DNA of 44,890 nucleotides, taken from the IMG/VR virus record IMGVR_UViG_3300037780_000029, positions 1 through 44,890 of that record. The stretch is one strand, 5' to 3'. Under the pieces are notes generated by a model. It worked only from the letters and a program-made list of their open reading frames with translations. It was not told where the DNA came from and did no database searches. Below are positions 1 to 44,890 of the stretch, in pieces. Position 1 is the stretch's first letter; every line of letters starts with the position of its first letter. The position numbers were made by a program, and so were the translations under genes. Source of the DNA: a virus (Duplodnaviria; Caudoviricetes).

Positions 1-127
1 CATTTCAGTAAAAAAGGATAGATATGAAAATGGGATTTTTTTCACCGAGTTATAAACGTCCGGAAAAGTCATTGACTCAAAAAGCGTTTCCGTTCGTTAA
101 ATTGGTAGTGATGGAAAGTGAGGCGGA
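1..127. repeat. Terminal direct repeat, copy 1 (circular contig overlap)
   Basis: Identical to 44764-44890; 127 bp matches a common assembler k-mer size, so probably an assembly overlap. Confidence 0.95.
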
Positions 128-755
128 TGAGTACCGGAGGAATGGGAATGATATAGTAGTTTGTCCGGATGAAGCACAGGGGAATTTGTGCAGGGTAAGG
201 AACTGGATATTGGATGAAATGATGGGGGATTATGATGGGTTAGTTTTGATGGATGATGATATTTCCCGGATATTCGAATACCAGGACACAGAGAAAGTGT
301 ACATGAAGGGAGAGGATTGGATGGAGTTTTGTGAAATGATGGGGATTTTGTGCAGAGATGCGAATGTGTTTTTCTTCGGCATAAATCCGGCAAGTGATAA
401 GGGATCATACCGGGAGCATATGCCTTTTTCATTCACGGCTTATATTGGTGGGCCTATTCAGGGGTTTATGAAGGGGAACAGGTTGAGGTATGATGAGGGG
501 TTACCATTGAAAGAGGATTATGATATGAGCTTGCAGCAAGTACAGCATTATGGGTATGTGCTGAGAGCGAATTGGTGTTCGTTGGATGTAAAGCAGTCGG
601 AGCAGGAGGGCGGTTGTTCAACCTATCGGAATTTGGAAAAGGAAAAAGATCAGTTTTTTAAGTTGAGGAAAAAATGGGGATCAAAGTGGGTGAGGTATGA
701 TGGGAGCAGTAAAAGAGGATTTGATTACAATCCTATTATCAAATTTCCGTATTAA
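24..755 (+). CDS. GT-A fold glycosyltransferase, TET-associated glycosyltransferase (TAGT/GREB1-like) type
   Basis: N-terminal PSYKR, RNWILD, DxD motif in MDDDI, KEDYD and late GGC motifs typical of phage TAGT-like enzymes. Confidence 0.75.
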   Translation: MKMGFFSPSYKRPEKSLTQKAFPFVKLVVMESEADEYRRNGNDIVVCPDEAQGNLCRVRNWILDEMMGDYDGLVLMDDDISRIFEYQDTEKVYMKGEDWMEFCEMMGILCRDANVFFFGINPASDKGSYREHMPFSFTAYIGGPIQGFMKGNRLRYDEGLPLKEDYDMSLQQVQHYGYVLRANWCSLDVKQSEQEGGCSTYRNLEKEKDQFFKLRKKWGSKWVRYDGSSKRGFDYNPIIKFPY

Positions 756-767
756 AGATGAGAAGAG

Positions 768-1334
768 ATGGCAGGGAAAGAGATGAAAGAGATGAAAGAG
801 GTGATATTTAATGAGGAGACTTATTTGATACCATTGGTTAGAAAAGGAGTGATATTGAGTGATGAGGAGAAAATGAATGTTGCGGAAGTGGTTTGCATGA
901 TGTATGAAACTGATGAGTATTCGTTGGAGGAGTGTTTGCAGTATTGTGGGATCAGGAGCAAAAGTACATGGTGGAATTGGGTAAATAACGTCGAACCTAT
1001 TGAACGTCTTTATTTAAAAGCTCAAAAAATGAAGGATTTAACCTACTCCCACGGCTTAAAGAGGAGAGCCAGGACACTAGTGGAGAGGTTATTGGATGGA
1101 GGGATAATACAGGATTTGGAAGAGCAGGAGGCGGAGCCGGTGATTGGGCCGGGAAATGAGAGGAGGTTGGTGACAGTGAAGGTGAAGAGAAAGCAAGTGT
1201 TGATCAAGCCAAGTGCGGGGCTGATATTGTCAATATTGTATAACCATGATCCGGCATTGTTTGATAAGAATCCGGAGCCGATTGAGCAGATGAGTAAAGA
1301 GCTCAGCATTGAGCCAATTGAATGGGTGGAATAA
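768..1334 (+). CDS. terS: Terminase small subunit (putative)
   Basis: HTH-like segment (SLEECLQYCGIRSKSTWWNW), helical body, stop overlaps terL start (TAATG). Confidence 0.7.
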   Translation: MAGKEMKEMKEVIFNEETYLIPLVRKGVILSDEEKMNVAEVVCMMYETDEYSLEECLQYCGIRSKSTWWNWVNNVEPIERLYLKAQKMKDLTYSHGLKRRARTLVERLLDGGIIQDLEEQEAEPVIGPGNERRLVTVKVKRKQVLIKPSAGLILSILYNHDPALFDKNPEPIEQMSKELSIEPIEWVE

Positions 1335-2635
1335 TGGGAGTGAAGATCAACAAAATCTTTCAACCTTTATACACCAGCAAAAAGAGGTATTTTTTACTGA
1401 CTGGTGGGCGAGGATCGTTGAAATCATCAACGGTGCATGATTTTATAGCGAGGCTGACATATGAAAGAGGACACGGTGTTTTGTTCACGAGGTATACAAT
1501 GACATCTGCAGAGTTGTCAATCATTCCGGAATTTCAAATGACATTGGAAAGGTTGAAGATCGAGCAGGATTTTCACATTACCAGGAATGTGGTCACTAAT
1601 AAGCGGACGGGATCTTTTATTTATTTCTCCGGTATTCGGGCGCATGGTAAGGATCAGACCGGTAAATTGAAGTCTATTGCGGGGATTACGACATGGGTAG
1701 TGGAAGAGGGGGAGGATTTTAATGATGAAAATGCGTTCAATGTCATTGATGATTCAATACGGACAGCGGAAAAACAAAACAGGGTGATATGGATTCAGAA
1801 CCCTACGACTCGACAACATTTCATATACAAGAGATTCATAAAGCCGAGCAGTAGAAAGAGGATGATGATGGGGTATGATGTGACGGTGAGCAATCATCCG
1901 AAAATAGAGCACATTCACACCACGTATCATATTGCTGAAAAGTTAGGGTATCTGAGTAAGGATTGGCTGGATAAGGCAGAAGAGGCAAAGAGGCGTTTGG
2001 AGGAACAGATTGTGGAGATCAGAAATACATCAAATTCCGGAGATGTAAGATCAAAAATAAAGGAGGCTATATATGGATCGCATTATTACCTAAATTACAT
2101 CGGGGGATGGTTAGAGAGAGCCAAAGGGGCAATATTTGTGAATTGGATTGAGGGAGAGTTTGATGAGAGTGTGATTAAATGTTATGGGATGGATTATGGG
2201 TATTATCCGGACCCATTGGCTTTGATTGAGGTGGGAGTGGATAAGAAGAGGAGGAGGATTTATGTGAGGGAGAAAATTTATGCTACAGGAGTAGATGATG
2301 TGGGGGAAGCATTGGAGGGGGCGAAAGTGGGGTATTACAATATGATTGTAGCGGATACCAGTGAGCCGCGGACCACAAGACGGCTAAGAAAGAGAGGCTT
2401 TAATGTTGTCAAGGCAGTAAAGGAAAAGATTGCGGATGATATCAGGGAGATAAATACATGGGTGATTGTAGTTGATCCGGAGAGTGAGAACATAAAGATG
2501 GAGTTGAATGAGTATAAATGGAATGATAAAAAAGCATCGATTCCAATTGATGCCTTTAATCATTTGTTGGATGCAATGAGATATGCGTTTAACAGATTGG
2601 TGAAAGGGAAAAGATCAAAAGTTGTGGTATCTTAG
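1334..2635 (+). CDS. terL: Terminase large subunit, PBSX-like
   Basis: Walker A GGRGSLKS, Walker B WVVEE, QNP coupling motif, nuclease GMDYG and NHLLDAMRYA; ATG at 1334 preferred over 1322. Confidence 0.95.
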   Translation: MGVKINKIFQPLYTSKKRYFLLTGGRGSLKSSTVHDFIARLTYERGHGVLFTRYTMTSAELSIIPEFQMTLERLKIEQDFHITRNVVTNKRTGSFIYFSGIRAHGKDQTGKLKSIAGITTWVVEEGEDFNDENAFNVIDDSIRTAEKQNRVIWIQNPTTRQHFIYKRFIKPSSRKRMMMGYDVTVSNHPKIEHIHTTYHIAEKLGYLSKDWLDKAEEAKRRLEEQIVEIRNTSNSGDVRSKIKEAIYGSHYYLNYIGGWLERAKGAIFVNWIEGEFDESVIKCYGMDYGYYPDPLALIEVGVDKKRRRIYVREKIYATGVDDVGEALEGAKVGYYNMIVADTSEPRTTRRLRKRGFNVVKAVKEKIADDIREINTWVIVVDPESENIKMELNEYKWNDKKASIPIDAFNHLLDAMRYAFNRLVKGKRSKVVVS

Positions 2636-2682
2636 CGAGAGGAGTGTATGGATTTTATTCATTACTATTTGGTTTTAGTGTT

Positions 2683-2719
2683 GCCCGGATTATGAGCGTG
2701 ATCCGGGCTTTTTGTTTTT
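2683..2719 (+). terminator. Rho-independent terminator after terL
   Basis: GCCCGGATTA-tgagcg-TGATCCGGGC followed by TTTTTGTTTTT. Confidence 0.8.
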
Positions 2720-2761
2720 ATTTCCGAAAAAGGCTATATTTAAGCCGATTTTACTTACCAA

Positions 2762-2781
2762 CGCTTGAAGGAGCCAGAGCG
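2762..2781 (+). promoter_or_regulatory. 5'-leader hairpin with GAAGGAGCCA loop
   Basis: CGCTT/GAGCG stem, 10-nt loop, 16 nt before the ATG at 2798; loop matches that at 7153-7174. Confidence 0.5.
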
Positions 2782-2797
2782 AGCAAATTTATAAACC

Positions 2798-3442
2798 ATG
2801 CCAATTTGTGTATGCCCAAGGCCATCCGCTCCACCCAGCGTAACCCTTCCAGATTGTTTTGAAGACTTTGGACAGATCAATAAAATGCTGTTTCAAAGAA
2901 CCTATTCCACAGGGACCACAATGAATGTTTTTGAACTTCCTGCATCAGACCCGGCGTTGATTGCCAATTGGAGTCCGTTATTGATTGCCAATGATGGCAC
3001 GAAAGTGGTGCAGACTCCTTTCGTTGCGAGTGTTACAAACACACCGGGTGATCCGCGTACCGTTGGAGGTGGGAATGATTCAGTAGGGGGAGTGGAAGAG
3101 ATCAGGGGAGCAAACCCGGATTTGTTTGAGGGGCAGTTTTATCAAATTCCACAGGCTGTTGCTAAGGAGATATCGGGATGGATGTGTGAGGAGTTGAGTG
3201 TGTATCTGATCAATGAGAAAAACCAAATAGGTGGCATCATTGATGATCACGATTCACCTGGAGAATTCCGTGGTATACCGATTGCGCGGAAAACGTTTTT
3301 TATTGGCTCCAAAGGATTCGGCGGGTTTGATAACCGTGATGCAAATGCATTCCGGTTCCAAGTTATCCCGGAGATTATGTTTGATTTCCATGTGATATCT
3401 CCAACGGATTTCCGACCATTGGACCGCCTTCCAACATCGTAA
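2798..3442 (+). CDS. Putative major tail (tube) protein
   Basis: 214 aa, Gly/Pro/beta-rich, N-terminal CxC..C.EDFGQI.K..FQR pattern recalled from Bacteroidota siphophage structural proteins; no other tube candidate in the tail module. Confidence 0.5.
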   Translation: MPICVCPRPSAPPSVTLPDCFEDFGQINKMLFQRTYSTGTTMNVFELPASDPALIANWSPLLIANDGTKVVQTPFVASVTNTPGDPRTVGGGNDSVGGVEEIRGANPDLFEGQFYQIPQAVAKEISGWMCEELSVYLINEKNQIGGIIDDHDSPGEFRGIPIARKTFFIGSKGFGGFDNRDANAFRFQVIPEIMFDFHVISPTDFRPLDRLPTS

Positions 3443-3444
3443 TT

Positions 3445-3690
3445 ATGAGCAAGGAGAAAGTTTTTTTAATCCACCCGCACACGGGGGAGAGTGTACCATT
3501 TGATCCGGACCATGCTGATCGCCTTATGGGGATGAGGGGTAACGGAGGATGGTCATGGCCCAAAGAGGTGAAGGGTAGCCGGAAGAGGCAGAAAAAAACT
3601 ACAAAAAACCAAACGAGTGCTGAGCTTAGAACAAATAAAGCAGAGGTTGGAGACTCAACCGCAAAAGAGGAAGATTGCGGATGTGGTTAA
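3445..3690 (+). CDS. Small hypothetical protein before portal
   Basis: Tightly packed ORF with HADRLM.M..NGGW motif; last 74 nt overlap the portal start. Confidence 0.6.
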   Translation: MSKEKVFLIHPHTGESVPFDPDHADRLMGMRGNGGWSWPKEVKGSRKRQKKTTKNQTSAELRTNKAEVGDSTAKEEDCGCG

Positions 3691-5578
3691 GTATGAGGCC
3701 CGGATTCGTTTTCATTCTGATCCGAGGATAAATACCGATATCTTAGAGACTCAGGCAACCAGTTTTTTCGCCTTTGTGGAATCATTGATTTCACAGAATA
3801 AATTTGATGTATTCAGGGCGTTATATCGTCACCCATCGAAATCGGTGGAGCTGGTGGATCAGATTTATGCCTTTTGCGAAAAAGTGTTTTATGGTAAGGA
3901 TGCAGTGACACAGTATTTTTTCAAAAGTGAAAGTGCTGCGGAGCGTTGGGACCTTTACCGAGTTCAGAAACTCAAAGCTACAAGCAGATGGAAAGAGGAT
4001 GGGATTGGTAACCTAAAGAGTAGGCCCAATTCCGTCCTCATTGTGGATATGCCGGAGGATTCAGATGAGGCATATTGGTATTGGTTGGACTTCCGGCATG
4101 TGATTGATTATGAATTGGAGAGTGATGGAGTACAGTTTAAACATATCATTTTCGAACAGGAAGGTGATAAATTGGCTGTGTTTGATCAGGATTCAATAAG
4201 GATATTTAATTACAAGGATAAGAAGTTAGGAGAGCTGTTGAAGGAATTCCGGCATGATTTAGGGTATTGCCTGGCAAGGTTCAGCGTTTCAAAGAGCGTG
4301 AGTTTGTCAGAGAAGCATATCAAAGTAAACCCTATTTCGAACCAATTGGGAGAGTTGGATTGGTATTTGTTCTTTGCTGTTAGTGAGAGGCATTTGGATT
4401 TGCATGGCCCATGGCCTATTTATTGGGGGTTTATTACCGATTGTGAATATCGAACGGCTGACAACAGCAGAGAGGGCTTTGTTTATTGCCATCGTGGTTT
4501 TCTCCGGAGAGAGGAGGATAACACGTATGTGATGAGCAGAGAGGGGAGCCGGGGGCATGGTTATTCACCTAAGCCTTGCCCGGTATGTAGTCAAAAGAGA
4601 ATTAATGGCCCGGGATCATTTGTGGGCGTTTCTCCACCTGATCCGGATAATGAGGGGGCGAACCTGAGAGAGCCGGTGGGGTTTGTTGGTGTTGATCGGG
4701 CAAGTTTGGACTATGTTACAGAGAAGAGGAAAAAATATGCCTTAGACATCTATCAGAGCGCTACGGGATATGGTGGAGAGCCAATCAATGATCAGGCTGT
4801 AAATGAAAAGCAGGTAATGGCTTCATTTGAGAGCCGGGCGCAGATGTTGAGGAACCTGAAAAAAGAATTTGAGGGAGCACAAAAATGGGTAGAGGAAACC
4901 ATTTGCCGGTTGATGTTCCCGAATGATTTTGTTTCCGCTCATATTGATTATGGGACGGAATGGTATTTGGTGGATTCCGGAGAGATATTGGACCGGTATA
5001 TGGAGCTGAGAGGAGAGGCGGGAGATATCGCATTGGATCGAATATTGAAGGATTACTATGAGACTAAGAACCGGAATAATCCGGAGGAATTGGCGAGGAT
5101 TCGGGTGATGAATGATTTGGAGCCGATGAGGCATGTAAGCAAAAAAGAGGCGAGTGATCTGTATAAAGATGGGCATATAGGGGCGATTGATTATGTATTG
5201 AAATTGAGGTTTAGTGATTTGATTGCGGAGTTTGAGCGGAAGAATCAAAAGGTACATTTGTTCGGTGTGGAGCTGGATTACAATGAAAGGATAAAAAGGA
5301 TCAGAGAGGAAATGGTGAGGTATGTTGAGGAAAATATGGTGGTAAAGAGTGAGGATCAATTACAGGATAAAATGAATGTGTATGGGGTGGCAGTACGGGC
5401 AGGGGCGGTAACTCCTCAGAGCCAGGATGAGGAATATTTTAGGCAAAGGATGGGAGTACCGGGAATGAGCCAGGAAGCGCGTACAGCGTGGGATGATGGG
5501 GGGAACATCCGGAGGCCGGTTACCTTGAAAAGTGAGGTAGAAATTGAGAAAGAAATTGATGACAATAGTAATCAATAA
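3617..5578 (+). CDS. Portal protein (putative)
   Basis: 653 aa between terminase and scaffold/capsid; Cys-cluster insertion (CEY..CHRG..CPVC); GTG start with A-rich leader. Confidence 0.75.
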   Translation: MLSLEQIKQRLETQPQKRKIADVVKYEARIRFHSDPRINTDILETQATSFFAFVESLISQNKFDVFRALYRHPSKSVELVDQIYAFCEKVFYGKDAVTQYFFKSESAAERWDLYRVQKLKATSRWKEDGIGNLKSRPNSVLIVDMPEDSDEAYWYWLDFRHVIDYELESDGVQFKHIIFEQEGDKLAVFDQDSIRIFNYKDKKLGELLKEFRHDLGYCLARFSVSKSVSLSEKHIKVNPISNQLGELDWYLFFAVSERHLDLHGPWPIYWGFITDCEYRTADNSREGFVYCHRGFLRREEDNTYVMSREGSRGHGYSPKPCPVCSQKRINGPGSFVGVSPPDPDNEGANLREPVGFVGVDRASLDYVTEKRKKYALDIYQSATGYGGEPINDQAVNEKQVMASFESRAQMLRNLKKEFEGAQKWVEETICRLMFPNDFVSAHIDYGTEWYLVDSGEILDRYMELRGEAGDIALDRILKDYYETKNRNNPEELARIRVMNDLEPMRHVSKKEASDLYKDGHIGAIDYVLKLRFSDLIAEFERKNQKVHLFGVELDYNERIKRIREEMVRYVEENMVVKSEDQLQDKMNVYGVAVRAGAVTPQSQDEEYFRQRMGVPGMSQEARTAWDDGGNIRRPVTLKSEVEIEKEIDDNSNQ

Positions 5579-5592
5579 CCTTTAAATAATTT

Positions 5593-6129
5593 GTGATGTC
5601 AAAGAAGCAGAATTTGGAAGTAGTGAAGGACTTGTATGAGGCCGGACTATATACGGAGGAGGAAATTGTGGATATGTGTGTGGACCGGATGGGAGTACAG
5701 GAGAACACGGTGCGTGGGTATGTAGCGGAGTTGAAAGAATCTGGGCAGATCAAGGTTGATAAGGTGATCAAAGATGATCAGGGTGATGAAGAAAAAAAAG
5801 TGATTGCCGGAGTGAAGCCGGATGAAAAGAGCGTATTGCAGAAATTGCTGGACAATGATGTGGATGCGATGGTGAGAGGCTTCAATAAAGATGAGATTGA
5901 GTATGAAGTGCCGGAGGGAGAGGAAAAGGATGTGCATGTGCTTCAGGAGGTTGTGACATATGATCAGGAATTGCCGCCAAACAAAGTGAGCAAACCCCGG
6001 ATTCAAAAATACAATCCCAAAGCATGGCGGAATTTTGCGCGGTACGCCGGCAGTATGGGGATGATCATTCATAAAGTTCTCCATCTTCCGGAAGGGGTGC
6101 CAGATTACAATGAGATCAAAAAGCTTTAA
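5593..6129 (+). CDS. Hypothetical head-module protein
   Basis: Acidic ORF between portal and scaffold with genome-typical codon usage. Confidence 0.6.
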   Translation: MMSKKQNLEVVKDLYEAGLYTEEEIVDMCVDRMGVQENTVRGYVAELKESGQIKVDKVIKDDQGDEEKKVIAGVKPDEKSVLQKLLDNDVDAMVRGFNKDEIEYEVPEGEEKDVHVLQEVVTYDQELPPNKVSKPRIQKYNPKAWRNFARYAGSMGMIIHKVLHLPEGVPDYNEIKKL

Positions 6130-6159
6130 TTTTTTCACCACATAAAAAGATGTTAAAAG

Positions 6160-7134
6160 ATGGCATTGACAAGGGATAACATATTGGAGCAATCAGCGCT
6201 TAAAGGTCTTACTGATGATCAGATAGGGGCCATTGTTTCATTGAGTCAAAATGATGAGCGCAGTGTAGTTGAGCGGGCTGTGAAAGATAACACGGCTGAG
6301 CATTGGAACCGGCTTGATCAGGATATCAAAGAGGTATTTGGGCAAGAGAAAGACCGGACGGTGAAGTCGTGGGAAATGTTGAAACAGGTGCTAACGGAGG
6401 CTAAGAATTCCGCCGCAGGGAGCCAGGAGTTGAAAGATCAGGTCACAAGCCTGACGGAAGAGAGAGACCGTTTAAAAGCTGACCTAGAAAAAGGTGGCGG
6501 AGACCAAGTTGTGGCAGACCTGAGGAAGCAATTGAATGACAAGGAGAGTGAATTGAAAAAGGTGAGAGATCAGTTAGGAGAGGTTGAAAATGATTACCAA
6601 AAGAAGCTCACCGAAAAAGATGATGCATTAGACCGGTTCAAATTCGAACAGGAGATTTATGGTGGGCTGAATGGAATCGAGTACAATGAGAATATACCCA
6701 AAACGATCCGGGAGCGAGAGGTGCGGTTTGTGGTGGAGGATGTTATGAACAAGTACAAAAGGGATTGGATCAATGATGGGGAGAATAAAGTGCCAGTTTT
6801 CCGGGATCAGGATGGGAATATTGTGACGGACCCTAAAAACCTGAATAAGCCAATGAGCCCTTTTGAATTGGTCAAAAAGAACTTGACAGATTTGATCAAA
6901 GTGGATGGCGGTAATGGAGGGAAAGGTCAGGGAGGAGGAGGAACGGAGCCGCCTGCAGGTGGAGGCCAAAGCAGTATTGTGTTGGATCGTCAACCAAAGA
7001 CTCAGCGAGAAGCGACTGAGTTGATACATGAAGCATTGATGAGGGCAGGAATTGCCGCTGATTCGCCGGAGTATTCAAAAAAGATGCGAGAGGAGTATGA
7101 GGGGATGAATGTGAGTGATCTCCCATTGCGATAA
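6160..7134 (+). CDS. Capsid scaffolding protein (putative)
   Basis: Long coiled coil, Gly-rich linker, short helical C-terminus, directly upstream of the capsid gene. Confidence 0.7.
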   Translation: MALTRDNILEQSALKGLTDDQIGAIVSLSQNDERSVVERAVKDNTAEHWNRLDQDIKEVFGQEKDRTVKSWEMLKQVLTEAKNSAAGSQELKDQVTSLTEERDRLKADLEKGGGDQVVADLRKQLNDKESELKKVRDQLGEVENDYQKKLTEKDDALDRFKFEQEIYGGLNGIEYNENIPKTIREREVRFVVEDVMNKYKRDWINDGENKVPVFRDQDGNIVTDPKNLNKPMSPFELVKKNLTDLIKVDGGNGGKGQGGGGTEPPAGGGQSSIVLDRQPKTQREATELIHEALMRAGIAADSPEYSKKMREEYEGMNVSDLPLR

Positions 7135-7152
7135 ATGAATTTTTTTAAAATC

Positions 7153-7174
7153 AAGCGCGAAAGGGCCAGCGCTT
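7153..7174 (+). promoter_or_regulatory. 5'-leader hairpin with GAAAGGGCCA loop
   Basis: Perfect AAGCGC/GCGCTT stem, 10-nt loop, 14 nt before the capsid ATG at 7189. Confidence 0.55.
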
Positions 7175-7188
7175 AAAATCAATTGATA

Positions 7189-8232
7189 ATGAGTTTAGCG
7201 AACACGCTGGCGCTTAATTTCATAGGAGATGCGCCGGAATTTGACAAAAACGAATTCAGAGTAACGAGTGCGGGAGCATTCAATACTTTCATGCGCCAAA
7301 ATGGCTCCGGATGGATCACTGATGATCTTCGGCAGAAGGTGATGGCATCATTTGGTAACACGGTTCAGATACCCGCGATTCAGTACAAAGATGTAACGAT
7401 TCGGAGTACTCGACCTTTGGTGATTCCTGCAGATGAAAATACCAGTGTATTGTATACCATCACATACAGTACGCTTGCGTATGGATTCAAGATGTACCCG
7501 ATGCAGCACCATAACAACATGATTTCCTATCAGCAGGATTGGAATAAGAAATTCCGGGCTATGATTGTGAAGATGATGACGACTTTGGAGGGCCTGGCTG
7601 TTGCGAAGTTGGATGCGGAAAAGACTCAGGTGATCGGAGAGGTCACAGGAGGCCATACGTTTTCCGGGAATGTGGTGAGTGAGACAGGATTGAGTGAGCT
7701 TGCGAAGAGCTACATTTTGGCTGACCTTTCGCCAATGATGCAGAGCAATGACTATTATGGTCTGACCTTTGATGTGATTGGCAATCAGGGGTATCAATCC
7801 GTACTGAACCGGCTGGCGGGCTTTTCTGATGCGAACTATGAAAACCGGGCCATTCAATTTCAGAACAAGATGTTCCATTTTTCCAATGAGATCGCCAATG
7901 CTGTGGGTAAGTCTGCAACGGGCTTTGCTGTTGCTGATGGAAACCTGGGTATTGTTACCCGGGTGGAGCCGGATTCATTGTATGGAACCCGTTTGCCAAA
8001 TGGCCATGAATGGTCTACGGTAGAGGTGCCTGGAATCGGTTTGCCGTTTGGATCGTATTACTACACCAAAGAGGTGGATGCAAGTGGTTTGCATGCCGGT
8101 ACAAGCGGTTTGAGCCGTACCACAGAGGAGGCGTTTGATTGGGCGATTGACATTGCGCTTTTGACCCCTTACAATTCTGACGCGGCAACAATCCCAACTC
8201 CTATTATCAAATTTGATTTGGAGACTGCGTAA
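7189..8232 (+). CDS. Major capsid protein
   Basis: 347 aa after scaffold; GNTVQIP motif typical of HK97-fold capsids; followed by two terminators. Confidence 0.8.
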   Translation: MSLANTLALNFIGDAPEFDKNEFRVTSAGAFNTFMRQNGSGWITDDLRQKVMASFGNTVQIPAIQYKDVTIRSTRPLVIPADENTSVLYTITYSTLAYGFKMYPMQHHNNMISYQQDWNKKFRAMIVKMMTTLEGLAVAKLDAEKTQVIGEVTGGHTFSGNVVSETGLSELAKSYILADLSPMMQSNDYYGLTFDVIGNQGYQSVLNRLAGFSDANYENRAIQFQNKMFHFSNEIANAVGKSATGFAVADGNLGIVTRVEPDSLYGTRLPNGHEWSTVEVPGIGLPFGSYYYTKEVDASGLHAGTSGLSRTTEEAFDWAIDIALLTPYNSDAATIPTPIIKFDLETA

Positions 8233-8241
8233 GCTGAGATG

Positions 8242-8276
8242 AAGAGGTGGAGGCGTGATTTGTCTCCATCTCTTTT
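8242..8276 (+). terminator. Terminator after capsid gene (first)
   Basis: AAGAGGTGGAGGC...GTCTCCATCTCTT stem running into T residues. Confidence 0.65.
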
Positions 8277-8306
8277 ATACCACTAATGCCATCCTTTTTA
8301 TCCTTT

Positions 8307-8334
8307 GCAGTCACCAAGTCAGGTGGCTGCTTTT
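8307..8334 (+). terminator. Terminator after capsid gene (second)
   Basis: GCAGTCACC-aagtca-GGTGGCTGC-TTTT. Confidence 0.6.
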
Positions 8335-8347
8335 AATCGTTTGAGAG

Positions 8348-9472
8348 ATGATCAAAGAGAGTTTAATTAAGAGCGAGTTATTGAGCCTTATCGGATGGAG
8401 GCAAAATGAAGATTCGAATGGTGTACAGATCGGAGCGGAATTATTGAATAGCGATAGTGGAATGTATTACAATGATTATCATCCATTATTGACGGTTGAT
8501 AAATTGGTAAGCCTTTGCCCTGATCTGATGATTTTAGGGAGTAATGCAACAGAGAGAAATGAAGCGTTTACCAAGTGGTTAAAGGAAAAGACAGAGGGAG
8601 GGATTGTGAAAGCGTTGTATGATTGGGTTAATGAGAAGTTGGTGAAACAAAGTGCGCGGAGTGTGTTGGGGAGATCGCAGTTGTGGGCGGTTAGCGCAGG
8701 AGTGAAGGAATTGGATATCAACAGAGGTGAATGGGCTGGAATAGAATTAGTGCCGATCCGTAGCCGGGAGCTTTTGGTGTGCCTGGAAGATATTGGCATC
8801 CAGTTGAGCGAAAATCAAAATGTCACGTTACGGTTATTCAATTCATATACTGCGGAAGAGGTGGAAAATGTGGTAGTGAATTACCAGGGCAATGGAGGTA
8901 TGCAGTGGGAAAAGGTGCGGTGGGAGTTGAGTGGAGAGGGGAGTTACTATGTGGTTTATGATCAAAGTGAAATTAGTGGTATGTCAGTAAATGGCATGGG
9001 TGATCGTTTTCAGTTGACGATGCAGGGGAAAGTATTGCCTGCTCCGGATATGTTATTGGCATCGCCGTTCGTGGTGGAGAGAGAGGATGGGAATTTGTGG
9101 GATTTGACAAAAATGGAGTATCAATACAGCAGTAATATGGGGATCAATATGAGATACAGTGTAAGGTGTGATTACACGGGCTTTATTCTGGATAACCGGG
9201 AAGTGTTCACGGAGTTGATTGGATTGCATGTTGCATCGATTCTATTAAACCAGTATCTCCACAATGCGGATGGGAGGTTAAACAGAGGAGAGGCGATGAT
9301 TGACCGGGAGTTATTGATGTTTGAGCTTCATGGGAATGAGGGGGACAAGGATAAAGGAGGATTGATAAATGAGAGGATCAAGGCAAGGAATGGGATCAGG
9401 TTGGATAACAGCTCATTGGATAAGGTTTGCCTGCCATGTAAGAAACCGAGGATTGAATATGGAGTGATATGA
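8348..9472 (+). CDS. Virion structural protein (head-tail adaptor region)
   Basis: Position after capsid; C-terminal CLPC; function by synteny only. Confidence 0.55.
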   Translation: MIKESLIKSELLSLIGWRQNEDSNGVQIGAELLNSDSGMYYNDYHPLLTVDKLVSLCPDLMILGSNATERNEAFTKWLKEKTEGGIVKALYDWVNEKLVKQSARSVLGRSQLWAVSAGVKELDINRGEWAGIELVPIRSRELLVCLEDIGIQLSENQNVTLRLFNSYTAEEVENVVVNYQGNGGMQWEKVRWELSGEGSYYVVYDQSEISGMSVNGMGDRFQLTMQGKVLPAPDMLLASPFVVEREDGNLWDLTKMEYQYSSNMGINMRYSVRCDYTGFILDNREVFTELIGLHVASILLNQYLHNADGRLNRGEAMIDRELLMFELHGNEGDKDKGGLINERIKARNGIRLDNSSLDKVCLPCKKPRIEYGVI

Positions 9473-9912
9473 TTGAGAGTTTGGAAAGAGTAATGAAGGG
9501 AATGAAGGAATGGCAGGATAATGTTGAGGAGATCATAATTGATCTGGCGAAGAATGAGGAGATTTTGATTGAGGCGATGAATACGCAGGATCAAATGTAT
9601 ACTCAGGGGATTCGGGCTGATGGAAATGATATCAGACCAAAATACACGGCATTCACCAAGGTGATTAAAAGGCAGAAAGGACAGCCTACCAACCGAGTCA
9701 CATTGAGAGATACCGGGGCTTTTCATAAAAGCGTTGGAGTGAAATGGGGGAGAAAGGAGTTTAAGTTGGTGGCTGGAGATATGAAAGTGATTGATTTGGT
9801 GAGGAAGTATGGGCCGGAGATATTGGGTTTGACTCAAAAAAATGTGGGAGTGTTGGGTGGGGTGATAAAGCCGCAGGCAATAAAGAGGTTTAAAAAGATG
9901 ATCAATGGGTAA
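9469..9912 (+). CDS. Neck/tail-completion protein (putative)
   Basis: Basic 147 aa with Y...T...K..KGQP.NRVTLRDTG motif typical of phage neck/morphogenesis proteins. Confidence 0.6.
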   Translation: MIESLERVMKGMKEWQDNVEEIIIDLAKNEEILIEAMNTQDQMYTQGIRADGNDIRPKYTAFTKVIKRQKGQPTNRVTLRDTGAFHKSVGVKWGRKEFKLVAGDMKVIDLVRKYGPEILGLTQKNVGVLGGVIKPQAIKRFKKMING

Positions 9913-10477
9913 GATATCGAACAGAAGTGCTTTTATACCGGATGATCCGGAGATGCTGGATTATGTATGTGTAGAGATCAGAGAGAGATTGTTGGAGAAA
10001 TTATTGTGGATTGATGAGGGGTATTTGTTGGCGGAAATGAGAGTGAGGCAGAACAGTATTGGTGAAGTATCTTACCCGGGAGTGTTGAATGGCGGGATGG
10101 AATATTTGAGCATGTTTCCGGATACTCATTTGGGGAATTACTTTTATTTCATCAATGATGATCCGTTGGAGATCGAGTATGGTGTGACGGTGAGTAAGAT
10201 TGTGAATGAGATTGGATTGGTGGTGTTCTTTGATTACCGGAGTGTATGGAGTTCAGGATGGGAAGAGAAAAGCATCCAAAATATGATGAGAGTGTTTTTG
10301 GATTTTTTTCAAACGGAATTCTTTAGCCGGTCAAGGGTAAGGCCATTAAGGTTTAGGACATCTGCAGGAGATATTTATGAGGGTTTTGATAGCCAGGAAA
10401 TAAAGCGGCAGTTTCTGATGAAGCCGTTTGGAGCTTTGAGAATTGATTTAGAGTTATCGTATTATCCAAAATGCTGA
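9905..10477 (+). CDS. Tail terminator-like structural protein (putative)
   Basis: Size and synteny between neck gene and tail chaperone. Confidence 0.45.
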   Translation: MGKISNRSAFIPDDPEMLDYVCVEIRERLLEKLLWIDEGYLLAEMRVRQNSIGEVSYPGVLNGGMEYLSMFPDTHLGNYFYFINDDPLEIEYGVTVSKIVNEIGLVVFFDYRSVWSSGWEEKSIQNMMRVFLDFFQTEFFSRSRVRPLRFRTSAGDIYEGFDSQEIKRQFLMKPFGALRIDLELSYYPKC

Positions 10478-10480
10478 GAA

Positions 10481-10939
10481 ATGAAAGGAAAGATAGGAAG
10501 GAATGAGATTGAGGTTTATGATTCGAGTGATAAAATGCCAATGGCTGTTTTTCAACGGTTCAATCTTTATGTGGCGATAGATGCCAACATAGGAGGAGAC
10601 ATGGATGCCGTCTACCGAAGGATGAGCAGGATGAGGGGCTTTTTTGAGATCGGCAAGAATAAGGAAGGATTAGGCGAATTGGATAACATGATGCAGGCTT
10701 TGGTATTTGTGATCACCAAAAACAATCCGGAGATGATGAGTTTTGCATCATTGGTGTATAAAGTAAATGGGGTGCCAGTGAGAGTGAGGAGCGAAGAGGA
10801 AGTATTGGAAATGGTGGAGAGGTTGAAAGAAATGGGGATGACAATGGGGCAGATGCGGAAAATGTTAAAAGCTGTAAAAAAAAAATTGATGATGAATTTG
10901 CCATTTTCTTCCCTGAAAAGAGAGAGAGTGCAAGAATAA
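10481..10939 (+). CDS. Tail assembly chaperone (lambda gpG-like)
   Basis: Upstream of tape measure; contains an A10 slippery run near its 3' end. Confidence 0.7.
   Translation: MKGKIGRNEIEVYDSSDKMPMAVFQRFNLYVAIDANIGGDMDAVYRRMSRMRGFFEIGKNKEGLGELDNMMQALVFVITKNNPEMMSFASLVYKVNGVPVRVRSEEEVLEMVERLKEMGMTMGQMRKMLKAVKKKLMMNLPFSSLKRERVQE
10876..10885 (+). promoter_or_regulatory. Programmed -1 frameshift site
   Basis: GTA AAA AAA AAA TTG; the -1 frame (ATT GAT GAT GAA TTT...) is open to 11247. Confidence 0.75.
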
Positions 10940-11247
10940 AAACGGAGGTATCAACAGTAAAGGAATGGGTGCTTTTGATGATACGGAATGTAAAAGGAGA
11001 GGATGTTAAGGAAGAGTTGAAAATGGCGCATGAGAGGATGTTGATGATGGTGAAGCCGGTGAATTTTAGTGGGAGTGATGGAGAGGAGGCAAAAGCGATT
11101 TTGAATTTTGAGGATTTGTGTTTGGTGATTGGAGAACAGATGGGGAGAGATGCGAAGGAGATGACGGTGATGGAGTTTTACCGGGCGTATGATCTGATTG
11201 AGAAGAGAATGAAAAGGAATGAGAAAGGGGGAAAGGGAGTAAAATAA
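10885..11247 (+). CDS. Frameshift extension of tail chaperone (gpGT-like)
   Basis: -1 frame reads IDDEFAIFFPEKRES...EWVLLMIRN, in frame with ORF 10969-11247; MTVMEFY motif. Confidence 0.7.
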   Translation: MDDEFAIFFPEKRESARIKTEVSTVKEWVLLMIRNVKGEDVKEELKMAHERMLMMVKPVNFSGSDGEEAKAILNFEDLCLVIGEQMGRDAKEMTVMEFYRAYDLIEKRMKRNEKGGKGVK

Positions 11248-11254
11248 AGCTGTT

Positions 11255-13999
11255 ATGAATCCGATTAAGGCAAGTGATATTTACCAGGATGATGGGGCGA
11301 TCTCCAAAGGGATCGAGCAGCTTGGTTTATTGGGGAAAGAGATAAAAAAGATCCACGGTGTTTTGTCAGACCTTGAAAAGGTTGTGAGCAAGTCAAATGT
11401 GGCTCAGGAATCAGGGAGGGATGAAGTGATGAAGGCGGCAAAGGAGGTTGACCGGTTGGCGAAAGAGGAGGAGAAATTAAGAAAAGCGTATAGTGATCAG
11501 GAAAAGGAGATAGCGAAACTGAGAGAGGAGCGAAAGAAGATCAACCGGCAGACTCGGAATGAGATCAAATTGGCGAATTCCGCAAAGGGTAGTTATGATG
11601 AATTATCTGCTCAGTATTCATTGAATAAACAGAGGTTAAATGCGATGAGCCGGGAGCAGAGAAAAGCCGCGGAAGCCAGTGAGGGGCTTGTGACTCAGAC
11701 TAGGAAGATTTATGAAGAGATGAAGGAGTTACAGAAAGAGACTGGTAAGACTGCGTTGAATGTGGGGAATTACAAAGATGCTGTCAAGGAAGGAATAAGC
11801 GAGACTTTTGGTTTGGGGAATGCGATGGAGTTGATCAGCAAAACTCCTTTATTAGCGGTGTTGGGGTTGTTGTTTGTCGGATTGAGAACTTTGTATGATG
11901 CATTCCGTCAGTCGGAAGAGGGAGCGATTTTATTGGAAAGAGCGGGGAGTGTTTTAAATGGCATCTTTGGGATATTGGTGAAGAGTATGAACACGTTAGC
12001 CGGAGGGTTAAATGATTTGTTCACTGATCCAAAGCAGGCGTTAAGTGATTTCGGTGATTCATTTAAAGAATTTATTATTGACCGCTTTAATGTAGCGGTA
12101 GGGATATTTAAAGGATTCGGCACATTAGTGAGAGGAGTTTTCACGAGAGATTTGGAATTGATAAATAAGGGGGCAAGGGAGGCAGGAGATGGCATATTGG
12201 AGATGTACACGGGGTTAGATTCCGGAGAGAGAAAAGAGTTTGATGAGAACCTTCGCAGGACGAGAGAGGAGTTTGATGCGTTGGCGTTGTCTATCCGGGC
12301 GAACCGGCAGGAAAACCGGGAATTGACTAAGGCTCTTCAATCGGTTATCACGGAAGAGGAGAGGTTGAGGTTTATTGTTGAAGATTCTACGTTGTCATTT
12401 AAAGAGAGAAGAGAGGCGAGTGAAGCGGCATTTGAGGCGACTGAGCAGCGGGCAGGTTTAGAGGTTCAGATTGCGCAAAACAATCTGGATGTAATAAACC
12501 AGGAGATTCAATTGAAGAAAGCGCAGGGGCGGGAGATTGAAGATTTGAAAGACCGGCAGGTCGAGGCTTTTGTTGCGCTGGCTGAAGCGAATAGGGAATA
12601 TACTATGACGGTTCAGGAAAATAGCCGGAGCCGGCGGATGTTGATTCAAGATGAGAGAGAGATCAATTTGGACATATTGATTGATCTCTTTGACAATCAG
12701 AAAACGATCAATGAGAGATTGATTGCTGATGAAACAAAGACGGCGGAGGAGAGGAGAGCTTTATTGGATGAAACACGGCGATTGTCTGACCTTTCATTTC
12801 GGGAGCAGGTGGAGAATTTGCAAGCTCAGGCAAAGGAATATATTGACATTAATGCGCTGATCAATGAAAGCGATGCCACTAGATTGGTTCAGGAAATTGC
12901 TGCCTTGGATTTGTCGGAGATCAACAAAACTAGATTGATTGAGATCATCAAAGAGAGGAGGTTGGCAGTATTGGATTTGAATGAAGCGGAAAGGGATTTG
13001 AAAAAGACTATTGAGGAGAGCCGTGGTACTGTCTCCCAAAGCCTTGATCCGTTATTGTTGCCGATCGAACAGGCAAAGGATTCAATGAAAGATATTAGTG
13101 ATGTTGTGGGGGAAATGTCAAGCGGAGAAGGGATCAGGCAGGGAGAGGGTGGATTGTTGAGCCAATTGGGATTGGAGTTTGGTGATAAGGAAAAAGAAGC
13201 GTTGGGGAGTGCGGTGGATTTCGCAAAGCAGAAAATCAGTGAGCTTGCGGCTGCCAGAGTTCAGGCATCAGAGGAAGCTGTGAGGGCCAGTGAAAGAGAG
13301 GTGACGAGTGCGGAAAGAGCGTTACAGGCGGAGATCGCAAAGTCAGAGCAGGGATTGGCGGCAAATATCGAGGCGAGACAAGAGGATTTGAAGGATGCGG
13401 AGAGTAATCAAAAGGAAGCGTTGAAGAACCGGCAGAGGGCGCAGAGAGCGCAATTGGCCATTGATTCTGTTACTCAGGCGAGCAGTTTAATAACGGCGGC
13501 TGCAAAGATTTTCAAAGACGTTAAATTCCCTTTCAACCTTGCGGCGATTGGATTGATGTTTGGATCATTTGCGGCTGCTAAGGTGAGAGCGTTTCAGGCT
13601 ACCAAATTGTTCTCAAAGGGTGGTTTGGAGTTTTTGGATTATGGTGGTAGTCATGCATCGGGAAATGATATTTATGTGGGGCATGATGGAAGAGGTTCAG
13701 AATTGAGGGCTGAGAAAAATGAAGCGTTGGCGGTATTCAATCCGGGAGCAACCAGGAAATACCGAAGTATTCTGCCTGAGATTGTGGATAGTTTAAACAA
13801 AGGCGTGTTTGAGAATAACTTTGGGAATATGAGTGAGATGGCAATGCATTGGGGAGTTGGATCAGGTGTGAGCGTTGATACATCGAGAATGGAAAGCCAT
13901 TTGTATCATATCCGGAAGAATGGAGGGCAGAAAATGGGAGTTGATGGAAAAGGTAGGAGCTTTGAAATTAGAGGGAATAAAAAAAGAATTTACGTGTAA
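11255..13999 (+). CDS. Tape measure protein
   Basis: 914 aa, helical/coiled coil, NVGNY motif, hydrophobic segments, follows the chaperone pair. Confidence 0.85.
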   Translation: MNPIKASDIYQDDGAISKGIEQLGLLGKEIKKIHGVLSDLEKVVSKSNVAQESGRDEVMKAAKEVDRLAKEEEKLRKAYSDQEKEIAKLREERKKINRQTRNEIKLANSAKGSYDELSAQYSLNKQRLNAMSREQRKAAEASEGLVTQTRKIYEEMKELQKETGKTALNVGNYKDAVKEGISETFGLGNAMELISKTPLLAVLGLLFVGLRTLYDAFRQSEEGAILLERAGSVLNGIFGILVKSMNTLAGGLNDLFTDPKQALSDFGDSFKEFIIDRFNVAVGIFKGFGTLVRGVFTRDLELINKGAREAGDGILEMYTGLDSGERKEFDENLRRTREEFDALALSIRANRQENRELTKALQSVITEEERLRFIVEDSTLSFKERREASEAAFEATEQRAGLEVQIAQNNLDVINQEIQLKKAQGREIEDLKDRQVEAFVALAEANREYTMTVQENSRSRRMLIQDEREINLDILIDLFDNQKTINERLIADETKTAEERRALLDETRRLSDLSFREQVENLQAQAKEYIDINALINESDATRLVQEIAALDLSEINKTRLIEIIKERRLAVLDLNEAERDLKKTIEESRGTVSQSLDPLLLPIEQAKDSMKDISDVVGEMSSGEGIRQGEGGLLSQLGLEFGDKEKEALGSAVDFAKQKISELAAARVQASEEAVRASEREVTSAERALQAEIAKSEQGLAANIEARQEDLKDAESNQKEALKNRQRAQRAQLAIDSVTQASSLITAAAKIFKDVKFPFNLAAIGLMFGSFAAAKVRAFQATKLFSKGGLEFLDYGGSHASGNDIYVGHDGRGSELRAEKNEALAVFNPGATRKYRSILPEIVDSLNKGVFENNFGNMSEMAMHWGVGSGVSVDTSRMESHLYHIRKNGGQKMGVDGKGRSFEIRGNKKRIYV

Positions 14000-17578: not shown

Positions 17579-17589
17579 ACAGTGAAATT

Positions 17590-18141
17590 ATGGCTCAGGT
17601 AAGCAGAACAGTAGCAAAAACTTATTTCGAAACGAATGACAAGCCGACTCAGCAACAGTTTGCAGACTTCATTGATTCGGCTGCATGGTATGATGAGATA
17701 CCATCCGGAGGAGGAGCAAGTGGTGGGCCAGCATCGGAGGCGTTTGGGTTTACTGCAGGATCGCCACAGCCCGGAGGAATTAACCCTAACGGTACTGTGA
17801 TGTATTGGGGCGATGTTCCTGTAATAACGAACCCATCAAATGGCTTGTTTGTGGTCACGTTTGGGGCAAATAGTACACCTCATTCCTTCCGGATTGCGTT
17901 GGACAGTGGAAGTATGAGCGGTGGTGCCGCTACGGTGAGATTTGTTTTACCTGGAAAGTTTATCAGCAGCGTAATTAAGGTAAAGAGAGCGGATGGGAGC
18001 AATAAAGTTCTTTTTGATTTGGAGGGGGAAAATGTGAGTGTGAATGAAGCGGTAACGGTTGGACAGACCAATATTGTTTTTAATAATCTGAACAACATTA
18101 ATAAAGTTGAAATCACAATAAATCTAACGACATGGGAATGA
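17590..18141 (+). CDS. Short tail fibre/adaptor protein (putative)
   Basis: N-terminal KTYFETNDKPTQQQFADFIDS resembles an anchor motif recalled from Bacteroidota tail fibres; Gly linker then beta domain. Confidence 0.55.
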   Translation: MAQVSRTVAKTYFETNDKPTQQQFADFIDSAAWYDEIPSGGGASGGPASEAFGFTAGSPQPGGINPNGTVMYWGDVPVITNPSNGLFVVTFGANSTPHSFRIALDSGSMSGGAATVRFVLPGKFISSVIKVKRADGSNKVLFDLEGENVSVNEAVTVGQTNIVFNNLNNINKVEITINLTTWE

Positions 18142-22159: not shown

Positions 22160-22163
22160 TAAA

Positions 22164-29377: not shown

Positions 29378-29407
29378 CCGGGGGGCGGTTGTCTCCCGGT
29401 TTTTTTT
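29378..29407 (+). terminator. Terminator
   Basis: CCGGGGGGC-ggtt-GTCTCCCGG-TTTTTTTT. Confidence 0.75.
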
Positions 29408-29431
29408 CAATCAAAAAAAAAAGGAATTGTC

Positions 29432-30652: not shown

Positions 30653-30662
30653 TTTTTAACCG

Positions 30663-42128: not shown

Positions 42129-42144
42129 AAGAAAATAACACATT

Positions 42145-42186: not shown

Positions 42187-42209
42187 AATCAATCAAAAAG
42201 AAATCAATT

Positions 42210-42734: not shown

Positions 42735-42782
42735 ATTTAGGTGCCTGGTGTGTGTGGTCATGCACCGGGCATTCTCAAAAAA

Positions 42783-43052: not shown

Positions 43053-43172
43053 TGATATTCCATTGGTAGGAATGGGAGTGTTTTGAATTTATTTTTTAAC
43101 CATGTTTGAGACGTTTGTTGAATGTTGAAAGGGCCTGCCCCCTTTCTTTTCTCATTAAAAAATGATTAGATT

Positions 43173-43343: not shown

Positions 43344-43366
43344 AGTTAGGTTAATAAGTTTTTAGG

Positions 43367-43406
43367 GGCCGTTTCCTTTTGATGAGGGGAACGGTTCTTT
43401 TTTTTT
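43367..43406 (+). terminator. Terminator before modification/packaging operon
   Basis: GGCCGTTTCCTTT-tga-...GGGGAACGGTT followed by a T9 run. Confidence 0.75.
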
Positions 43407-43440
43407 GGCGGAAAAGGGTTTATTTTATGCAAAAAAAGAG

Positions 43441-44784
43441 ATGAAAAGGAAGTACAAAGAGCCGGATTACAATCCACGGACAATCAGTAAAGAGGATGCC
43501 AGTGATCTCCGGAAGTGGCTGGAAGAGTTTGGCGATCTATCAGGGAAAATTTACAATGTGGTTACGGAGCAATTTCCGGGGGGTAACCAGAGGAGTAAAC
43601 AGATCAATATTGAAGAGTGTGAGATTGAGTATGTGAAGCAGTGGAAAAAGCCCGATGAACAGGGTACGGTTGCTTATGGGTATGTAGTATGGCAGGGGAA
43701 GAGGTACAATTACCGGGAGGTAAAATGGGATTTGGAGAAAGAGAAGAGGGCGAATGTGATCGCCAATAAGGCAGGAGGAGAATGGGATTGGACGAAGATG
43801 AAAGAGAATTTTGAGGTGGATGATTTGTTGGAATCAGGATTTAAGACAACGGAGTTGAACGATTGGTTTTCTGAGGAGAAAAAGGATGAGAGGTTGGATA
43901 AGGAGGAGCCAGGACAGGTGGTATTCTCCAAAGAATTGGGGAAAAGTTCACAGTATATTGTATTGAAGTTTGAGGAGAACATTGATTTTCTGCAGGCAAA
44001 GACTTTGTTGGGGCTTGATAGCCGGTATAGCAAGCGGCAGAATGGGAAGCCGTGGAGCCGTGGTATTGGTAGAGTCTTTGATGGAGTTCAGGCGGTGACC
44101 CTTTTAAGAGAGGGTGAGAATGATTATTTAGCCGGGGGATATCGGTTTAAAGCGAGGAGAGATAAAACGGATGTATATTCGATTGATGAGGTGTTTAAGA
44201 AGGGAGCATATAAAAAGCTGTTGATTCAGAATGAGGATGTGGTTTTAGATATCGGAATGAACATAGGGAGCTTTGCGGTGTATGCGGCTGGATTGGGAGC
44301 GAAGGTTGTAGGGATCGAGCCGGAAGAGGAGAACTTTATGATTGCGGGAGAGAATGTGTTTAAAAACAAGATGGGGGAAGATGTGGTATTATTGAGAGGT
44401 GCGGTGGTAGGAAGAGAGATTGACCGTGTGGGGCTTTATCTCAATTCCGGGAAAGGGGCTGATGCACATAGGATCATTGAGACTCAAGGTAGAGACGTTG
44501 TAGAGGTAAGAGCATGGAACATTAATGATCTCATAAATGAATACCGGCCGAACAAATTAAAGATAGATTGTGAGGGAGCTGAGTATGAGATTATGATGGC
44601 GGTTAGAGATTGGGTGGGGATTGAGTTGATTAGCATGGAGTGGCACCGGAAATTATTAGGGGATGAGAGTAATGAGATGTTGAAAGAGGTTGTGAAGAGA
44701 ATGGAGGAAAATGGGTATGAGTTTGATGGGAAAATTGATGGGAAAGGATGGATGAGCGTTATTCATTTCAGTAAAAAAGGATAG
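43441..44784 (+). CDS. ParB-like N-terminal domain fused to FkbM-family SAM methyltransferase
   Basis: YNPRTI..L..FGD, GGNQR, AN..GGEWD (ParB-like); VLDIGMNIGSF, IEP...N, LKIDCEGAEY, MEWH (FkbM); ATG 43441 preferred over TTG 43405. Confidence 0.85.
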   Translation: MKRKYKEPDYNPRTISKEDASDLRKWLEEFGDLSGKIYNVVTEQFPGGNQRSKQINIEECEIEYVKQWKKPDEQGTVAYGYVVWQGKRYNYREVKWDLEKEKRANVIANKAGGEWDWTKMKENFEVDDLLESGFKTTELNDWFSEEKKDERLDKEEPGQVVFSKELGKSSQYIVLKFEENIDFLQAKTLLGLDSRYSKRQNGKPWSRGIGRVFDGVQAVTLLREGENDYLAGGYRFKARRDKTDVYSIDEVFKKGAYKKLLIQNEDVVLDIGMNIGSFAVYAAGLGAKVVGIEPEEENFMIAGENVFKNKMGEDVVLLRGAVVGREIDRVGLYLNSGKGADAHRIIETQGRDVVEVRAWNINDLINEYRPNKLKIDCEGAEYEIMMAVRDWVGIELISMEWHRKLLGDESNEMLKEVVKRMEENGYEFDGKIDGKGWMSVIHFSKKG

Positions 44785-44890
44785 ATATGAAAATGGGATT
44801 TTTTTCACCGAGTTATAAACGTCCGGAAAAGTCATTGACTCAAAAAGCGTTTCCGTTCGTTAAATTGGTAGTGATGGAAAGTGAGGCGGA
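44764..44890. repeat. Terminal direct repeat, copy 2
   Basis: Identical to 1-127. Confidence 0.95.

Follow-up and report, generated by a model that had tools for sequence, protein, structure and literature searches.

Very-short-patch repair by the Dcm and Vsr proteins of Escherichia coli leaves effects on oligonucleotide frequencies. The present work concerns a word bias in a bacteriophage, the strong over-representation of the palindrome CCGG in IMG/VR record IMGVR_UViG_3300037780_000029 (Duplodnaviria; Caudoviricetes), all 44,890 nucleotides of which form the window analysed here, and its relation to a cassette in the same genome that encodes a ParB-FkbM fusion protein and a TAGT-family glycosyltransferase. 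Several described systems bear comparison. CTAG has been linked to the E. coli Dcm/Vsr pair (PMC4687349); V.NgoAXIV, a Vsr protein of Neisseria, cleaves CTGG/CCGG mismatches (PMC6116569); and VsrA of Caulobacter, a DUF559 protein, is hypothesised to act in repair at YGCCGGCR (PMC12907096). CCGG itself is over-represented in 41 Helicobacter genomes, a bias whose cause the authors leave unexplained (Rusinov et al. 2015, PMC4687349), and the highly iterated palindromes (HIPs) of cyanobacteria, e.g., rCCGGy, have been modelled as a by-product of methylation-directed repair (Elhai 2015, PMC4390886). Phages are reported to share tetranucleotide usage with their hosts (PMC1360066). Phage gene clusters have also been described that combine a C5 methyltransferase (C5-MT), TET and a glycosyltransferase, or that contain a ParB-dependent T-dioxygenase (PMC8256090, PMC13229309). 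The trinucleotide CCG is reported to be mutagenic in laboratory lines of Bacillus subtilis yet not depleted in nature (PMC5585990), which does not account for a gain of CCGG.

The initial annotation of the phage genome had offered two explanations: CCGG is either selected as the site of a protective modification, with the TAGT/FkbM module as the candidate enzyme system, or shielded from C-to-T drift by modification or Vsr-like patch repair. We consider it likely that the excess is a strand-symmetric T-to-C shift common to many Bacteroidota chromosomes, imprinted on the phage by the replication and repair of its host rather than selected through the cassette. A palindrome excess in a phage thus need not mark a protective modification.

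Size and strand anatomy of the CCGG excess

The whole genome contains 296 CCGG sites, compared with 67.3, 90.3 and 245.0 expected from zero-order, first-order and second-order Markov models, respectively. In 300 synonymous-codon shuffles of the 56 open reading frames (ORFs) on the + strand, which carries all called genes, 139.9 ± 7.8 sites were retained (maximum 161) versus 289 observed (z 19.1), placing CCGG first among the 256 tetramers. The ratio of observed to shuffled counts, hereafter the synonymous-shuffle ratio, is 2.07-2.16, varying with the gene calls. The over-representation that the initial annotation had reported for a C-poor genome (12.8% C and 30.2% G on the + strand) is therefore borne out under both Markov and codon-shuffled nulls, and its local counts are exact (10 CCGG and 2 GGCC in 1-1300; 15 CCGG in 29401-30660). 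Its description of the codons also agrees with the genome-wide counts: before CGG, 59 of 74 two-fold Y-ending codons have C as their last base, versus 21% overall, and Pro is encoded by CCG in 125 of 196 cases before G versus 33-45% before other bases.

The excess extends over all three reading frames (125/58/106 sites observed, 94/26/21 after shuffling), six amino-acid contexts and non-coding DNA, where 7 sites occur and about 2 are expected. CCGG is present in 52 of the 56 genes at near-random spacing (coefficient of variation 1.10), with no clustering and no helical phasing among the sites of the whole genome. A conditional-logit model with codon and junction-dinucleotide terms assigns it a 5.1-fold effect, the highest of 136 strand-merged words; with trinucleotide terms added, the effect is 2.3-fold and ranks fourth (twice the log-likelihood difference, 42). 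The CCGG excess is real and strong, about twice what the genes require, and lies at the level of DNA.

The choice between C and T locates the effect more closely. At silent C/T sites overall, C is used in 27% of cases on the coding strand and 58% on the template, and before G on the coding strand its share is only 7% in D[Y]GH, 12% in D[Y]GG and 22% in C[Y]GH. At the inner position of the palindrome, C[Y]GG, the share is 70% on the coding strand and 81% on the template; at the outer position, [Y]CGG, it is 82% and 85%, versus 56% and 67% for [Y]CGH. CCGG keeps a near-equal level of C on both strands amid strongly asymmetric surroundings. The phage coding strand is extremely C-poor, with a coding G-C skew of 0.36. 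Among the neighbours of CCGG, the words CTGG, CCAG, TCGG and CCGA stand at 0.62-0.85 of the synonymous null, a deficit of about 140 over the four words with none purged. When a CCGG term is fitted, the transition neighbours together stand at 0.83 and 0.67 in the two models and the transversion neighbours at 1.40 and 1.31.

The sole extension of the tetramer is TCCGG/CCGGA, which adds 1.4-1.5-fold, with TCCGGA at about 2-fold. A longer hidden word was rejected, since neither RCCGGY nor CCSGG contributes anything further. The low CTAG, CTTG, CTCG and CTGG prompted a degenerate CCNGG-type Vsr model, which was likewise rejected: TAGG, TTGG and TGGG show no depletion and CCSGG no enrichment.

Other words are biased as well. 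Strand-merged AAAG/CTTT is raised 1.9-2.1-fold and CAAG/CTTG is lowered to 0.43-0.48; GAC/GTC stands at 0.49, TCG/CGA is down, and GACGC/GCGTC has 2 sites against an expected 14. The phage is low in GGCC, CATG, CGCG and CTAG, and five of the six-base palindromes checked, GGATCC, GGTACC, GGGCCC, GTCGAC and CTCGAG, have no site at all. Restriction pressure acts on this phage.

The C-versus-T shift in Bacteroidota chromosomes and candidate repair enzymes

The portal and capsid proteins assign the phage to the B40-8/B124-14/PDS1/P2559 group. Because 74 of the 75 phage records matched by the portal and 75 of the 76 matched by the major capsid protein bear Bacteroidota genus names, the host is likely to be a Bacteroidota bacterium. 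The relatives were obtained with alignment-based portal scans; a single-protein portal scan of viral contigs gave none.

Chromosomal segments of up to 20-40 kb were analysed from 129 Bacteroidota genomes (36 of the 161 sampled were not fetched), of which 112 were scored; 14 for which less than 9 kb was fetched and a further 3 whose expectation was below 10 were dropped. Their synonymous-shuffle ratios have a median of 1.22 and a maximum of 2.10; 88 exceed 1, 31 are at least 1.5 and 12 at least 1.8. At a GC content of 0.35-0.48 the share at or above 1.5 is 27 of 64. The first-order observed/expected value of the phage, 2.72, falls within the host range (13 of 122 segments at or above 2.5, maximum 3.39), and the similarity of a host to the phage in the other 135 words predicts its CCGG excess (Spearman 0.64).

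The same base choice is seen in these chromosomes. The C fraction at C[Y]GG (coding/template) is 0.70/0.81 in the phage, 0.76/0.77 in 21 hosts with a high excess, 0.77/0.77 in 29 middle hosts and 0.38/0.38 in 14 low hosts, which show no shift; at C[Y]GH the corresponding values are 0.22/0.61, 0.31/0.31, 0.45/0.42 and 0.45/0.42. About 50 of the 112 Bacteroidota genomes sampled, and some Bacillota, carry a strand-symmetric C[C]GG shift for which no cognate methylase or Vsr was detectable. Judged by the record titles of the centre genomes, 3 of 10 Bacillota segments of 8 kb reach 1.40-1.72, and none of 10 Pseudomonadota segments of that length, one with almost no coding DNA, exceeds 1.12. We found no published account of a shift of this kind in the open-licence literature searched.

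A mutational or repair process shared with the host is thus the probable source of the excess. The mechanism we propose would comprise several steps: (i) The phage coding strand would be under strong C-to-T pressure, as its silent-site C fractions suggest. (ii) In the host, CTGG and, to a lesser extent, TCGG would be pushed to, or held at, CCGG on both strands. (iii) T:G mismatches would probably be resolved toward C by a process resembling patch repair. (iv) CCGG would thereby escape the C-to-T pressure and stand out more than usual. (v) The host would have no CCGG-cutting enzyme active on the phage, as the purging of other palindromes from its genome suggests. A strand-symmetric T-to-C shift at the inner base is the trace expected of patch repair at CTGG/CCGG mismatches, although context-dependent polymerase error combined with ordinary mismatch repair, or the trace of lost restriction-modification (R-M)-Vsr systems, would look alike. 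Resolution of T:G in the manner of patch repair is the likeliest form of the process, but for the Vsr/DUF559 type specifically the proposal is tentative and, in our judgement, somewhat doubtful.

Cassettes that combine an HpaII-family endonuclease, a C5 methylase and Vsr occur in 2 of the 161 sampled Bacteroidota (positions 1816-4633 of L339, genome G046, and 3272-6437 of L340, genome G081), and the CCGG ratios of these two genomes differ (1.86 and 1.06). DUF559 genes are present in two or more copies in 14 of 21 high and 1 of 21 low hosts, and copy number correlates with CCGG excess over the 112 genomes (rho 0.43; 0.26 after controlling for GC content and size). DUF559 copy number is a weak lead. 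Orphan Vsr-like DUF559 nucleases, multiplied in many Bacteroidota, might convert CTGG (and TCGG) mismatches to CCGG through a patch repair that needs no methylase, and so mark chromosomes and phages alike; we regard this as unlikely, but if true it would supply a cause for the Helicobacter excess. The shielding branch of the initial annotation fits the data. The strand-symmetric shift speaks for it, as does a depletion of CTGG/CCAG and TCGG/CCGA beyond that of the transversion neighbours, uneven though this is from word to word; Vsr presence does not track the excess in hosts, so that a Vsr-like cause is something we still only infer. Should a dedicated repair activity lie behind the shift, the CCGG excess becomes testable in culturable strains.

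A number of observations weigh against host imprinting by repair. The direction of change is not given by composition, and the phage population is near-clonal. The synonymous-shuffle ratio of the phage lies at the top edge of the host range, its outer-C effect exceeds that of the pooled hosts, and its actual host is known only to phylum, through relatives. The high hosts were picked on their CCGG excess, and the statistics carry no phylogenetic correction. The contrast between transition and transversion neighbours is uneven across words: the dinucleotide model leaves TCGG a residual of 1.06, and in the joint fit CGGG falls to the level of CTGG. As to enzymes, Vsr occurs in 1 of the 12 host genomes at or above 1.8; as a predictor of host excess, it was rejected when the raw p of 0.02 was lost after GC matching (medians 1.41 and 1.38, p 0.45). 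Of the 21 high hosts, a single one gave a full-length match to an HpaII-like methylase with the query used. The DUF559 correlation disappears in 73 held-out mid-range genomes after control for GC content and size (partial rho 0.02, without phylogenetic control). Among phages, the closest portal relatives (51-54% identity) have CCGG ratios of merely 0.96-1.35. Two cassette-free whole genomes of the group, B124-14 and PDS1, are enriched (1.69, z 8.1, and 1.52, z 13.2, respectively), which in itself favours a host-shared process, but their excess may have another cause, since CTGG/CCAG is nearly purged in both (0.38 and 0.02). Finally, the composition of the phage is also compatible with modification of CCGG by the ParB-FkbM/TAGT cassette.

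Alternative explanations and the ParB-FkbM/TAGT cassette

The alternative that survives best, though still improbable, is positive selection for CCGG in host and phage alike through a host protein that recognises it, e.g., as a methyl mark for repair or self-recognition, an idea raised speculatively for Helicobacter and cyanobacterial HIPs. In its favour, the excess has palindromic, strand-symmetric form, appears in non-coding DNA and is stronger still at TCCGGA, and the Helicobacter genomes with the same over-represented word encode CCGG systems, with no accepted explanation (PMC4687349). However, selection for a word should draw on all its one-step neighbours alike, whereas the transition neighbours are the more depleted; the sites show no clustering or spacing pattern; and the matching methylase is missing from 20 of the 21 high hosts with the query used.

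Less probable again is selection of CCGG as the glycosylation site of the ParB-FkbM/TAGT cassette, perhaps in addition to a methyl mark set by the host. An intact cassette adjoins the terminase genes, in the order ParB-FkbM, TAGT, probable TerS and TerL over the genome join. The fusion protein matches phrog_620, PF05050 and TIGR01444. Its ParB-like domain has closest relatives that are mostly fused to N6/N4 methylases, and its middle segment (residues 166-245) matches the gene adjoining TAGT in 140 of 157 TAGT loci, at the C-terminus of a ParB_N gene. FkbM homologs occur in only two of these loci (L115 and L126), as separate genes that are 38-40% identical. No full-length relative of the fusion was found among 6,556 candidates, so the specificity of the cassette could be private to this phage. 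In addition, the phage ratio tops the host range, and a few other TAGT phages are rich in CCGG: one low-GC clade (L143, L147, L150, L152, L155 and L156, each with an expectation below 10) has CCGG at 3.1-4.3 times and GGCC at 0-0.56 times the synonymous null, and L171 (low expectation), L184 and L138 reach 2.26, 1.78 and 1.68.

The relatives as a whole argue the other way. Phage loci were scored when they spanned at least 7 kb with an expectation of at least 10, low expectation removing 58 of 118 TAGT loci and 17 of 128 portal loci. The 60 scored TAGT loci have a median ratio of 0.85, with 23 at or below 0.5, 6 at or above 1.5 and none at or above 1.8; after dereplication, 34 loci give a median of 0.79 with 4 at or above 1.5, and 23 low-expectation loci pool to 65 sites observed versus 108 expected. 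The two loci with both FkbM and TAGT contain no CCGG in 16,257 bases, although they are AT-rich and their power is low. Among portal-family loci, 18 of 111 reach 1.5, and the two that carry TAGT stand at 0.17 and 0.53; portal loci other than L001-L003 are partial, so that the lack of TAGT there may not hold genome-wide. The enriched whole genomes of B124-14 and PDS1 gave no cassette match, and P2559S, which encodes a homolog of the ParB-like part, lacks CCGG altogether. The proposal that CCGG is the target of the TAGT/FkbM module accordingly fails the comparison with relatives: enrichment is seen in those that lack the module, whereas avoidance of the word prevails among phages that have it.

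Nor was an enzyme found that would make an acceptor for the sugar. In the complete genome, a TET/JBP dioxygenase (PF12851) gave no match at E ≤ 10 and a C5 cytosine methyltransferase (PF00145) none; PF01555 scored merely 13 bits, on the S-adenosylmethionine (SAM) motif of FkbM; and no Vsr or DUF559 gene was found. Among 49 neighbours scanned from 18 TAGT loci there were no TET or DNA methylase families. The TAGT profile found no relative in the PDB, the single-sequence fold of the ParB-FkbM protein was unusable (predicted local distance difference test score, 34), and for residues 1-245 the Atlas returned leads no better than 0.89, of which one had 12% ParB_N. A search of the open-licence literature for protection by N4-methylcytosine found no paper. 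Most probably the cassette does not explain the CCGG excess. Glycosylation of CCGG by the cassette without a TET enzyme is, if anything, more improbable still. The findings remove CCGG as a likely target of this TET-free ParB/TAGT cassette.

Two further features of TAGT phages were observed. The loci L078-L234 show stronger avoidance of GCGC, CCGG, GGCC, CGCG and CATG than is found in portal-family phages or hosts, which suggests that the cassette gives no relief from restriction at those sites. Their coding-strand G-C skew is also higher than that of portal-family phages and hosts (median 0.22 versus 0.10 at a GC content of 0.36-0.44, lineage not controlled).

About as improbable as cassette selection is the possibility that the excess is a by-product of restriction-site avoidance, in which words containing CTGG/CCAG or TCGG/CCGA are shunned and synonymous CCGG fills the gap. 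The phage does shun many sites, as the missing six-base palindromes show, CTGGG/CCCAG stands at 0.19-0.22 (9 sites), and PDS1, with its near-complete loss of CTGG/CCAG, illustrates the route. In the phage, however, the four T-neighbour words are lowered without any being purged, and the same shift occurs in chromosomes with normal CTGG/CCAG, e.g., G062 (1.00) and G093 (1.09). A translation-level codon or codon-pair preference is the least credible cause, for although strong avoidance of NNC|G junctions is confined to the coding strand and Pro-Gly pairs exceed expectation 1.34-fold, the independence of the excess from frame, amino-acid context, strand and coding status largely refutes it.

Genome features and comparison with known systems

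The phage genome is complete: the record is classed as such, and its terminal overlap closes the circle (Table 1). Contigs from runs X3 and X4 match positions 1-20000, with no listed differences, which makes an assembly artefact less likely, with the caveat that these 2020 pond runs may be one campaign. Runs X5 and X6 show 17 scattered differences, mostly clustered near contig ends, from which mutations could not be polarised. One low-depth X5 contig carries nine G-to-A changes within 35 bases (13351-13385), 31-65 letters from the contig end, which may be error or another organism.

Table 1 Positions of the features discussed, in the 44,890-nucleotide window.
Feature	Position	Strand	Description
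CCGG sites (296)	1..44890	.	Dispersed, coding and non-coding; core tetramer with mild extra preference for TCCGGA (57 sites)
TAGT-family glycosyltransferase	24..755	+	PF20691; follows the ParB-FkbM gene directly, over the genome join
Probable terminase small subunit	768..1334	+	By position; homologs precede TerL in relatives; no family match
Terminase large subunit	1322..2635	+	PF04466/PF17288
Portal protein	3617..5578	+	phrog_7376; B40-8/B124-14/PDS1 group; basis for placing the phage and gathering relatives
Major capsid protein (inferred from relatives' annotation)	7183..8232	+	phrog_7231
Three-part ParB-FkbM protein	43405..44784	+	ParB-like N-terminus (about 1-165), conserved TAGT-partner segment (166-245), FkbM-type SAM methyltransferase (about 279-440); start codon uncertain
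Terminal repeat	44764..44890	.	127-nt copy of positions 1-127; genome circularises

Elsewhere in the genome, two successive ORFs at 10481-11247 correspond to the N- and C-terminal halves of phrog_8914, in the tail assembly chaperone position before the tape measure, where a programmed frameshift is possible. A 291-residue tail-region gene at 21284-22159 has no CCGG in 876 bases, where about 6 would be expected at the genome rate, and is possibly a recent acquisition. A subtilase (Peptidase_S8) gene at 22089-23981 closes the tail module ahead of the holin, and a Lar-like gene is present.

Set beside the known systems, the phage resembles the C5-MT/TET/glycosyltransferase clusters in having a ParB-like gene and a glycosyltransferase beside the terminase; it differs in that no TET/JBP or C5 methylase was detected, and the C5-MT targets reported are GpC-containing rather than CCGG (PMC8256090, PMC13229309). 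With cyanobacterial HIPs it shares a palindrome excess, but a much weaker one, a 4-mer at 4.4-fold over the zero-order expectation whose best extension, TCCGGA, accounts for 57 of 296 sites; there is no preference for rCCGGy (ACCGGT 16 and GCCGGC 8 sites), and no cognate methylase was found; the excess does not qualify as a HIP. Helicobacter offers the same restriction-type palindromic tetramer in excess. There the excess goes with annotated CCGG R-M systems (PMC4687349), whereas the phage has no such gene and the Bacteroidota that match it mostly have no detectable HpaII-like methylase or Vsr. The likeness to very-short-patch repair is that, on both strands, the C form is raised and the T form lowered, the latter unevenly from word to word; in the phage the effect reaches both cytosines, the presence of Vsr shows no correlation with it among the sampled hosts, and any cognate enzyme is putative. 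The reported sharing of tetranucleotide usage between phages and hosts (PMC1360066) has its parallel in the word bias of the phage, which matches the chromosomes of its likely host phylum. Here that shared signature comes down to one choice of base, between C and T in CCGG, and the unusual scarcity of C on the coding strand amplifies it.

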